DNA of 64,000 bases from the NCBI GenBank assembly GCA_000934665.2, contig JYFJ02001342.1, positions 1 through 64,000 of the forward strand, in the 5' to 3' direction. The position numbers were made by a program, and so were the translations under genes. Source of the DNA: Catajapyx aquilonaris (Eukaryota). Of this stretch, positions 52,901 to 58,443 are shown in pieces. The notes below the pieces were generated by a model. That model did not search any database. It was not told the origin of the DNA and saw only the letters and a program-made list of their open reading frames with translations. Every line of letters starts with the position of its first letter. The first letter of the stretch is position 1.

Positions 52901-55900
52901 GAAATTCATTTTTTGGGAATGTGTTTACGTTCATTGCCGTTTGTGTGGCTAAATGGCAAACAGCCAAATTGCACTTGTCACACCGTGCGTACAAAAAGCA
53001 ATCAGTTGCATGAATTATCCAAATAATAATTCCGGAATTTTCCCGCATTTTTTTGCGATAGGAACAGTCGTAACGACCTTCTCAACATGTCGTAAATTGG
53101 ATTCAGAAGGGTTACAAAATGCATTGTAGTTGCGTCGTTATTGCCAAATAGTGAATCACAAAGCTCACTTGGCGGTTTGGCTGGTTTCCAGGACTTCCAC
53201 CAGCTGGCCCATTTGCAGCGGGATGACACCTTCGTCTCCAGTTTTGGGTTGGAAGTCGCTGACCGCTTCGTAGAGTTCATGGCCCTGCAGTAAGAAATTG
53301 GGAAAATTGGAAACAGACCCTCGTTATTTTTTATGATTTTTTTTTCAATAAAAGGAGTCGAGTCGACGTGGCAATGGGGCGAAAAGGAGAGCTATTTCAA
53401 AAGTAGCGCCATGGCCAGGAGGGCCCATCGTCAATAGTCCCTTCCTTATCACTAGGATTGAGTGGCCCAGCCACTAGGATTCCAGGCTATTTCGGATGGA
53501 CCACTTTGGACACGCTCCAAGCACCTGTCTCAATGTCGACATGTCGAGGCGTGACGGAAGGACCAAACTACCAAGTGCCACCACTCCTGGGACATTCTCT
53601 GTACCCGCCACGATTTGTCTAAAAAGCTCTGCGCAAGGCTTGCTGACAACACACGAGGCAACATGTTTACATAGCGGCCGCAAAGCTGGTCAATTTTAGA
53701 CAAAAGGAATATAGCCTCAGGATGTTCTGTACAGGTAGAGCAGAAAAGTTCTTCAACAGAAAGTGACCTTGGTGGAAATTCCGTTCAAGGTGGGCTAACT
53801 CTATATTATTATGGGCCATATTGCATTAAAGGCGAAAATGTCACACTTGCACAACGGAAAAATACTTCACATTGCAAGTGCTTCATGGTCAAGCGAGACA
53901 GCTAGAATAAGTTACATCATTGGTTAAAAGGAGAGCAAATGCAGTTATTTTTGTAGGGATGACTCTTTCTGTTAGCACTCCTGGCTCTCTACCGCTTACG
54001 CATGCATATGCCCACTTGTATACACACGGTTAACGCATGCGAATGCCTCAGGGAGTCTTCCTGCTCGAGTCAAAAGGACCATTCCTGGGGCTATCTAAAT
54101 AATCGGCTTCCTTTCAACTGGCAAGTCAGCATCAAGTTTAACTGATGGTCAGACATTTCATCTATTTTGAACCTCATCCCGAGGAATGCTTCCGTTGACA
54201 GCTCCCTTTAACGCAACTTGACATAGTACAGCGTAGGTTTTCTAATTATGCTGCCACCTTCGTTACGCAATATTCACTCCTCCCCCAATATTAATAACCG
54301 ATGAAAGTCACCTCGTCAGCACAATTGACTTAACTTATTTCAAGCACACACCGGGAACCCCTAATCTTACGGATTGTACAGTACAGTCCGGCTAAGAACA
54401 AAAAGCAATTATTGTCCCACCCCGCAGAACCAAGTTACGAGATATTTTGTGACCATAAATTTCTCAATTTTGCCATGAGCGGTTTCCCTATGCAACTCAT
54501 CTGACTGGTTTTGAAGGCTTTATCGTCTCAAGATATTATTTCTCGGTATCAGGATTGAGATAATGTACTTTTGTTTTGGCCAGACTTTATTCTGAATACT
54601 GAACCTGCATCTAACCTCTGGAAATACGACAGCAAAATATCCACTGCCACCGCTGTCAGTCAAAACACTGTCGTCGTCAGGAGACGCTGGTGGTGCGTAT
54701 CCATTCTGCGTGTCGTTCCCATTGGTGCCGTTTTCTTCCTCGTCGCCTTGATTGGCAGCTAAGGCTCTCAACACACCCAGTGGTTTGAAATATCGTTCCC
54801 CTTGTGGCCCAACAACGGTGTAATCGCTGCCACTTCCGGTCATCAACATGCCAACAACCTTTCCAGCCAGACCCTCACCATCTGATGCAGTCACGCTTTC
54901 TACCCGTTGAAGAACCTTTCTTTGCAATTCTCTAGGATCCAGTAGTACCGTGCTCCTTTTGTCAGGACCGGTGCCTTCCTCCTCCTGAATGACGTCGGCC
55001 AATGCTGCAAGAACTAACGCCTGCAGACCACGCTCTTCTTTTCTCTCAGGGGACGATTCTGTAGCTGCCAAAAGGGCGTCCAGTGCTTTGGTGACTGCTG
55101 TTCTGGCGTCACCTTCGCAGGACGCCGCTACCTCTGGACATAAACTACCTAGCACGGTCCGAAGAACTTCTTTTGCGTCCATGCTGACACTTCTGGCCAG
55201 GTTTTTGCTGGGCTCTTCAGGAAATTCTTCCATTTCTTCGTCGAGGTCGATTTCGATGCCATATGCCTGAAAGTCTAAGGCCGGTAAAACAGCGGACACT
55301 TGACGTCCTAATGCGACACCAGAGGCAGCCATTTTGTCCAGCAAATTGGAGTCCAATGCTGGTTGGAAGGGTGGAGAGCACAGAGGCTGTTCTAGACACA
55401 AACTGACTTCTTCAGGCGGGACCTCGAAGCCCTGCACGGAAAACTGCAATCCTGATGGAGTTGACACAACATCTGGTGCCAAGAAGCGCAGTCCTTGTGA
55501 TGTCACCACCACACGTCCAGGTACAAATCTTGTACCTTCTGGCGTTTCTTCCAGATGACCAGGAACAAACCGTTGTCCTTCTTGCGTTTCCACGACCTGA
55601 CCAGGAACAAATCGCTGGCCTTCCTCGGTTTCGACCATCTGACCAGGAACGAACACAGGACCACGACTGGTATTTAGAACCTGTCCAGGAACAAACTTGG
55701 GGCCATCATCTGTGTTCAGAAGCTGCCCAGGGACAAACCTTTCTCCAGCTTCTGTAACTACAATCTGTCCAGGAACAAATTTGGGCCCCTCGGCTGTGTC
55801 AACCACTTGTCCTGGAACAAACCTTGGCCCGACCTCTGTGTCGAGTACTTGCCCAGGGACAAATTTTCCAGCGACCATTCGACCGGGCACAAATTTTGGG

Positions 55901-58443: not shown

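Follow-up and report, generated by a model that had tools for sequence, protein, structure and literature searches.

Obscurin, or Unc-89, has been studied mainly in the worm, the fly and vertebrates. Ecdysozoan obscurin is described, in a review, as carrying its RhoGEF domain N-terminally, and PMC10129394 places PK1 of the Drosophila protein at residues 3186-3480 of UniProt A8DYP0. The present analysis concerns a stretch of 64,000 nucleotides from Catajapyx aquilonaris (NCBI GenBank assembly GCA_000934665.2, contig JYFJ02001342.1, positions 1 to 64,000 of the forward strand; hereafter the window). It contains, upstream of a complete obscurin gene on the same (minus) strand, a giant open exon whose product, referred to below as the module, carries two arrays of a 14-residue FVPGQ unit.

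The obscurin gene of the window comprises SH3, DH-PH, Ig, Fn3 and two kinase domains. It has the same SH3-DH-PH front as C. elegans UNC-89 and Drosophila Unc-89, and, as in these proteins, tandem Ig domains, Fn3 domains and two kinases follow on one strand. Unlike in the reference ecdysozoan proteins, about 1,280-1,650 residues precede the SH3 domain in fused relatives and would do so in the window as well. Most likely, the module is a conserved, unnamed N-terminal part that belongs to the obscurin locus of arthropods, and its repeat is predicted to form a beta-meander. On balance, judging from splice sites, reading phase and fused relatives, it would be the conserved first coding exon of an N-terminally extended arthropod obscurin isoform, spliced from 54616 to 53284.

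The giant exon, its repeat arrays and its relatives

The minus-strand open reading frame (ORF) at 54520..58443 encodes 1,307 aa, with an ATG at 58443 and a stop at 54520. Upstream of this ATG the frame is open for just 11 codons, measured stop to stop, which makes 58443 the first ATG. A GT at 54615 (GAG/GTTAGA, the slash marking the exon end) falls on a codon boundary, in phase 0; cutting there leaves 1,276 codons with no stops, and if the donor is read through the frame closes 31 codons past it. An earlier note on this DNA had described a 3.8-kb ATG-initiated open exon with a phase-0 donor, followed 1.3 kb downstream by a phase-0 SH3 exon. The ORF and the GT site confirm the former, and the donor-acceptor distance of 1,331 bases, with the acceptor at 53284, confirms the latter. 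The start of the exon is homologous to the start of more than 100 relatives (MSFCRITG...), and the N-terminal CRITG motif of these relatives is present at the very start of the window protein. Since nearly all of the full-length relatives listed share this N-terminal sequence, the ATG at 58443 is the homologous start.

The exon product contains 30 cores of the form [FLIV]x[PA][GD]x at residues 532-973: 20 at residues 532-778 and, beyond a gap of 73 residues, 10 at residues 851-973. The spacing between cores is exactly 14 residues in 17 of the 29 intervals, in agreement with the roughly 30 units of 14 residues in two arrays that had been reported previously. Strict F[VI][PA]G cores number 25; when this protein was shuffled 2,000 times they averaged 0.106 and never exceeded 2, and 0-2 were found in each of the other five frames across the whole window. 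At the DNA level, Tandem Repeats Finder detected only diverged 42- and 84-nt periods (72-76% matches), and the repeat units are therefore old rather than recent duplicates. Both arrays are in register with the 14-residue units of relatives in a 64-sequence alignment, in which F and G are invariant in most individual units. The units are thus positionally orthologous and their number is fixed.

Relatives were sought in a 90%-clustered protein collection, within a near-length band and at E<=1e-3. This search gave 261 proteins, the best 120 of which all lie at E<=4e-135. The species-named proteins among these best 120 of 261 are all from insects and are mostly annotated as 'uncharacterized protein' or 'hypothetical protein'; the orders represented are Hemiptera, Lepidoptera, Diptera, Orthoptera, Blattodea, Phasmatodea and Thysanoptera. 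A search at longer lengths (19 matches) added hymenopteran, beetle, damselfly and crustacean (Cherax, Daphnia) relatives, and phmmer over 1.84 billion cluster representatives returned 251 matches at E<=1e-3, 59 of them at E<=1e-30. The 1,276-codon exon is a real, old part of a gene, conserved across insects and crustaceans.

It is practically out of the question that the frame is a chance ORF, a pseudogene or a repeat-derived artefact. No point was found for this explanation beyond a transposase fragment 4 kb upstream; the 1,307-aa frame is open, hundreds of orthologues have the same start and architecture, and all matches lie in frame. The explanation is refuted by these orthologues, the shared start and the conservation across the 64 sequences.

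Uncharacterised insect and crustacean proteins, among them Aedes AAEL011867, Schistocerca LOC124593677 and Anopheles gambiae LOC3289975, are orthologues, with 28-43% identity to the window module. They share with it the N-terminal motif, the globular domain, two arrays at about residues 435-895 and the post-array block. They differ from it in the post-array tail, which has about 270 aa in the window copy and about 640 in these and other relatives; some 370 residues that the relatives have are missing or diverged. Of the relatives' long helical C-terminal region (..YTVLDE.GI.HFEPLHVFSAL..), the window copy keeps the last motif alone. Every remaining tail match to relatives lies in the ORF frame, and a search of 53000-56000 for frameshifted remnants of the missing C-terminal region found none. 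No published function was found for these orthologues; AAEL011867 is mentioned in one paper, a transcriptome study. Neither a Drosophila orthologue nor any other higher-fly protein was seen among the best 120 of 192 matches to a query that was itself brachyceran (Hermetia), the best 120 of 261 matches of the main search or all 19 longer matches, and our guess is that the module was lost in higher flies.

Conservation along the module is uneven, the best-conserved blocks being residues 1-60, 151-175 and 851-1050. In residues 1-75 the column conservation is 0.83-0.91, and C7, R8, G11, P17, P19, Y21, F22 and P23 are invariant, among others. The earlier note did not recognise the repeat as a named domain, and this still holds, with one caveat. 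Pfam-A gave nothing at or above the gathering score on the exon, only sub-threshold noise (e.g., Ribosomal_L27, with 14.8 bits where 20.5 are required); a phmmer search of PDB sequences returned no match apart from one noise-level hit (SMC1, E 0.77); and the string 'FVPGQ' is absent from the roughly 8.4 million papers and preprints searched. The caveat is PF27023.1, a precomputed match in a subset of the homologues, whose accession is newer than the Pfam-A release searched. The ESM Atlas gave no usable match for the whole exon or for residues 96-240. Among the titles and abstracts listed for obscurin/Unc-89, none concerned an N-terminal module. Databases already contain sequences of the module, under names such as 'uncharacterized protein' or 'obscurin isoform X', and it is the architecture, not the sequences, that is newly recognised.

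Is the module joined to obscurin?

The first SH3 half is encoded by an exon (SH3a) with a strong acceptor at 53284 (ctgcag/GGCC), and it starts three codons before the first SH3 strand. An in-frame stop lies 14 codons upstream of this acceptor and there is no ATG in the SH3a frame; SH3a therefore needs a reading frame from an upstream coding exon. In an ORF scan, the giant exon is the only long coding exon upstream of SH3a on the minus strand. A virtual splice of the giant exon, SH3a, SH3b and the first DH exon has no stops, with or without a cassette between the two SH3 exons, and all four of its introns are GT-AG. The only AWTAAA on the minus strand between 54616 and 52424 is at 54586-54591, ahead of the read-through stop at 54520, and no canonical poly(A) signal lies between that stop and the SH3a exon.

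Fourteen related gene models join the module to at least the SH3 half-exon, the RhoGEF or the Ig parts of obscurin. In P0173, P0174 and P0175 (5,328, 6,110 and 6,282 aa) the module N-terminus comes first and whole obscurin after it, in the order module, SH3a, cassette, SH3b and DH. By tblastn they match the window between 58434 and about 18200, in strict collinearity for P0174, whereas in P0173 and P0175 one or two Ig-repeat matches break the order. These sizes fit the isoform of roughly 5,000 aa that had been expected. PK1 lies at about 4226-5280 in the fused relatives, i.e., 1,000-1,800 residues later than the position given for A8DYP0, and these positions are consistent with a fly reference isoform that does not contain the module.

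By precomputed Pfam, the module occurs together with RhoGEF in Eretmocerus, Microctonus, Hermetia ('Obscurin'), Pseudolycoriella ('Obscurin, partial') and Acyrthosiphon (A. pisum 'obscurin isoform X6'); Ig domains are present in all of these five models but that of Hermetia, and kinases too in that of A. pisum. The module extends to RhoGEF in the Trichoplusia ni X1, Blattella and Danaus models, and in the Schistocerca, Diploptera and Epargyreus models it is followed by the first SH3 half-exon. A single BLASTP alignment of the virtual product with Pseudolycoriella 'Obscurin, partial' covers residues 1198-1422 and spans the 1276/1277 junction. The lepidopteran models diverge after '..SPPKV', 2-3 residues before the first SH3 strand, which is the junction position of the window. 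The Schistocerca and Diploptera models end in '...AK' and '...VK', right after half an SH3. The SH3a donor of the window (AA/GTGAGC, 53164-53171 on the minus strand) gives K-stop (AAG TGA) upon unspliced read-through. The Schistocerca and Diploptera models therefore already contain the junction between the giant exon and SH3a, and fail to splice onward.

Several observations weigh against a fused product. In many annotations, RefSeq entries of mosquitoes, sandflies and bugs among them, the module stands by itself as an 'uncharacterized protein' of some 1,300-1,650 aa. Some fused models come from ab initio predictors, which are prone to joining neighbouring ORFs on the same strand. The donor GAG/GTTAGA is only moderate, and a short first exon, as yet unseen, could feed the SH3a acceptor instead. 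Among the mosquito versions a C-terminal tail is conserved, and it could be either the true C-terminus of a stand-alone form or another exon end.

As the earlier note had also allowed, the module may be a gene of its own, that is, an independent protein of about 1,300 aa beside obscurin and at most an occasional read-through partner, with obscurin starting from another small exon. We regard this as rather unlikely. It would account for the annotation of most named relatives as separate 'uncharacterized protein LOC...' entries of 1,299-1,650 aa, RefSeq included, for the tail shared by culicid homologues (..KTLPMAMRIAIKASL..K) and for the closure of the frame 31 codons past the donor. It would also suit the relatives P0124, P0126, P0128 and P0183, which reach 2,308-6,540 aa; Pfam finds no domain whatever in P0124, P0126 and P0128, and P0183 does not match the obscurin exons of the window. 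However, conservation is absent from the 31 read-through codons, and there is no AWTAAA between their stop and SH3a. Moreover, the need of SH3a for an upstream coding exon is left without another long candidate on the minus strand, some of the 'separate' models end at the K-stop after half an SH3 and hence contain the junction, and three full-length representatives (P0173-P0175) are fused. Both fused and separate products may exist.

The joined reading was the one favoured in the earlier note, which had called the exon probably fused to obscurin. The ATG-less SH3a, the open virtual splice and the 14 joined models support that view, the splice itself being what we infer from them.

Predicted fold and possible role of the module

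AlphaFold2 was run on residues 1-1200 with the 64-sequence alignment, and gave a mean predicted local distance difference test score (pLDDT) of 66 and a predicted template modelling score (pTM) of 0.50. Array 1 was predicted as 20 consecutive strands over residues 504-768, of 6-12 residues each (most 8-12), at a pLDDT of about 80-90. Array 2 was predicted as strands over residues 836-1000, about 12 units, at a pLDDT of 65-80. In array 2 the strands run over 872-883, 886-897, 900-911 and so on, with F residues at 875, 889 and 903. These limits put FVPGQ within the strand and the two-residue turn at the x-x of T-x-x-G. One 14-residue unit is thus predicted to be one beta-strand with PG at its middle, and the arrays to be sheets of about 20 and about 12 strands. 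In our own reading of the register, the PG of neighbouring strands would face each other and form a Pro-Gly stripe across the sheet, and the sheet faces would alternate an F/V row with more polar rows. The beta-hairpin repeat rod proposed in the earlier note is therefore upheld in substance: the strands of both arrays are continuous and antiparallel in the model, but the turn is at T-x-x-G only, and the unit is a strand and not a hairpin.

What known structures resemble these sheets? The top Foldseek ranks of the 1,200-residue model were CROPs of clostridial toxins, streptococcal glucan-binding repeats, Rhs shells and DDB1 propellers (E 1e-6 to 1e-4), with TM-scores of 0.05-0.13 and root-mean-square deviations (rmsd) >23 A. 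In VIA-align with the full model, none of CROP, glucan-binding, Rhs/YD or DDB1 was among the chains listed at Z>=2 out of 971; 8 of the 971 reached this score, and the 7 listed cover only the helix pair 1111-1158 or residues 804-878. Pfam gave no match on the exon to the cell-wall-binding/CROP or Rhs/YD families at E<=1. Clostridial CROPs, glucan-binding repeats and Rhs/YD shells are like the arrays in having long runs of antiparallel strands built from short repeats. However, units of the CROP/Rhs type are about 20 residues long and form one hairpin, whereas the FVPGQ unit of 14 residues forms one strand. The likeness found by Foldseek is that of any antiparallel repeat. Two points count against the predicted sheets: no solved structure superposing on the arrays was found by Foldseek or VIA-align, and the confidence for array 2 is middling. 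A two-copy complex prediction of array 2 (residues 805-1020), made without alignment or controls, scored 0.00 and is neutral on self-association.

The VPG of the units recalls the elastin VPGVG, and the module would belong to a giant muscle protein. The arrays might be an elastin- or PEVK-like disordered elastic segment, an entropic spring, and not a folded sheet. In an alignment-free ESMFold2 run the pLDDT of array 2 was <50, which would fit such disorder. We nevertheless hold this explanation to be quite improbable. Elastin-like and PEVK springs are low-complexity, disordered and fast-evolving, whereas in the FVPGQ arrays F, G and many flanking positions of the units are invariant across insects and crustaceans in the 64 sequences, the composition is not rich in Pro, Glu and Lys, and AlphaFold2 with the alignment predicts regular strands, most confidently in array 1 (pLDDT 65-90 over the two arrays).

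The N-terminal part of the module appears to be of a different kind. Residues 1-95 have a pLDDT <50 although they are the most conserved part of the protein; this pattern points to a motif that needs a partner in order to fold. The compact domain that follows has a pLDDT >90 as part of the full model and 75 by itself, and a long helix at residues 221-265 comes after it in the AlphaFold2 model. For this domain folded alone, Foldseek gave no matches at E<=1e-3; its best hit (a peroxiredoxin, E 0.034, TM 0.16) and the best VIA-wide hit (PCNA, Z 3.0, rmsd 6.4 A over 78 residues) were both taken as no match.

In the fused architecture proposed here, translation would start at 58443, and the 54616-to-53284 splice would put about 1,280 residues ahead of SH3-DH-PH-Ig-kinase. 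The extension would begin with the disordered, near-invariant triple Cys/Pro-rich motif, probably a docking site, and continue with the small globular domain, which matched no fold in our searches. A helix and a linker would lead to the sheets of about 20 and about 12 antiparallel strands, with T-x-x-G turns and a mid-sheet Pro-Gly stripe, and a short helical tail would close it. The near-invariant N-terminus, with its three Cys-basic-Pro-rich sub-repeats, could serve for docking or lipidation. Given the fixed number of strands and the conserved strand faces, a rigid spacer or a broad docking surface would suit the sheets better than a random coil. Most likely they would act as a structural spacer of fixed length, or as a docking surface, distancing the N-terminal motif from the SH3-DH-PH signalling end. 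They could also unzip unit by unit under load, yielding about 5 nm per 14 residues. The splice in Catajapyx aquilonaris, expression in muscle and a mechanical or docking role are what we infer.

A broader proposal is doubtful, though possible: the module could be an ancient pan-crustacean extension of obscurin of about 1,300-1,600 residues that the field has missed. Its two beta-meander sheets, of 14-residue single-strand units with a Pro-Gly stripe, would be a structural element new among the giant proteins of the sarcomere, and the near-invariant Cys-rich docking or lipidation motif at their tip could connect the M-line with membranes or thick filaments. If so, it would have been missed because the fly and worm reference proteins lack the module. 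Invertebrate obscurins lack the ankyrin-binding site, and no such linking role is known for them. If most insects and crustaceans do place a module of about 1,300-1,600 residues before the RhoGEF, the domain map of invertebrate obscurin is incomplete, and the near-invariant N-terminal motif and the repeat fold would be candidates for M-line anchoring or load bearing. The module also offers a clean case in which to test a 14-residue beta repeat with one strand per unit.

Other features of the locus and of its relatives

Table 1. Coordinates of the module and of the obscurin gene in the window
Feature	Residues	Coordinates	Strand	Basis and remarks
Giant first coding exon, ATG 58443 to phase-0 donor GAG/GTTAGA	1,276 codons	54616..58443	-	ORF and splice-site inspection
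Triple Cys/Pro-rich motif including CRVT	1-75	58219..58443	-	Most conserved block, predicted disordered
Compact alpha/beta domain	100-235	57739..58146	-	AlphaFold2, pLDDT >90
FVPGQ array 1, 20 predicted antiparallel strands	504-790	56074..56934	-	Cores, AlphaFold2, alignment
FVPGQ array 2, about 12 units, best-conserved repeats	836-1000	55444..55938	-	Cores, conservation 0.73-0.90, AlphaFold2
Conserved post-array block (...LD...G.A.GRQV)	1001-1050	55294..55443	-	Alignment
Helical, low-complexity tail	1051-1276	54616..55293	-	Alignment, AlphaFold2
Putative intron GT..AG, 1,331 bases		53285..54615	-	Splice-site and phase match
SH3 exon a, first SH3 half		53169..53284	-	Enters in phase 0, ends in phase 2, no ATG
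In-phase cassette of 171 nt between SH3 halves		51996..52166	-	Proteins of relatives and splice check
SH3 exon b (WLVRT...GWVPASVL)		51710..51862	-	Alignment to SH3 of relatives
DH-PH exons 51647-51477, 48788-48612, 45781-45689, 44886-44719, 44102-43944, 43905-43732		43732..51647	-	tblastn
Tandem I-set Ig, Fn3, kinase 1, Ig-Fn3, kinase 2		18191..42495	-	Pfam on ORFs, tblastn

Downstream of the module (Table 1), alignment matches both SH3a and SH3b with the SH3 of relatives. The 171-nt cassette between them is present in the T. ni, Hermetia and P0173-P0175 proteins and absent from that of Pseudolycoriella; this exon, by which an SH3 loop would gain 57 residues, is probably alternative. The DH-PH exons, all but the first of which are bounded by tblastn only, match RhoGEF-bearing relatives at 45-85% identity. 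Pfam on the ORFs placed I-set domains between 42418 and 20471, fn3 domains at 23746-24219 and at 19896-20480, and Pkinase domains at 22789-23253 and at 19320-19871. Two open frames, of 269 aa (minus strand) and 264 aa (plus strand), overlap at 42391-43200, immediately upstream of the first Ig exon. The minus-strand frame has no Pfam match and is possibly a low-complexity linker after the PH domain.

The relatives of the module vary in length and composition. In some species the same protein has 4,976-6,540 aa (P0126, P0128 and P0183), and in P0126 a helical repeat that is about 100 residues long (..SHILSNLQQIKQ..) is inserted after the arrays in several dozen copies. Beetle relatives (P0134-P0137; 2,275-2,360 aa) have a divergent N-terminal motif, CKITRASKLFQRNFYLPLLKPLSPKDALR, and only 4-5 FVPG cores, and are either a strongly diverged orthologue or a paralogue. 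The culicid homologues shown (P0095, P0099, P0158 and others) end, in 17 of 17 cases, in ..(T)LPMAMRIAIKAS(L/I)..SR(D/S)..K.

Long arrays of 14-residue repeats were also observed in metagenomic proteins that are apparently prokaryotic or phage-like (P0221, P0233, P0239, P0249, P0260 and P0304). These repeats (SGDLFIxGHxxxxT / DSQEAYIAGxxTAS) have the same 14-residue period and an aromatic-aliphatic-x-Gly core, and match the FVPGQ arrays at phmmer E values of 1e-8 to 1e-28, but the proteins are without the N-terminal motif, the globular domain and the Pro of the FVPGQ module. The match may reflect periodicity alone, and either convergence or distant kinship could lie behind it. Two of the scanned metagenomic proteins (P0233 and P0297) carry CBM96. 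In the window itself, about 4 kb upstream of the module ATG, a minus-strand ORF at 62213-62674 contains a C-terminal fragment of a DDE_3 transposase (E 6.8e-10).

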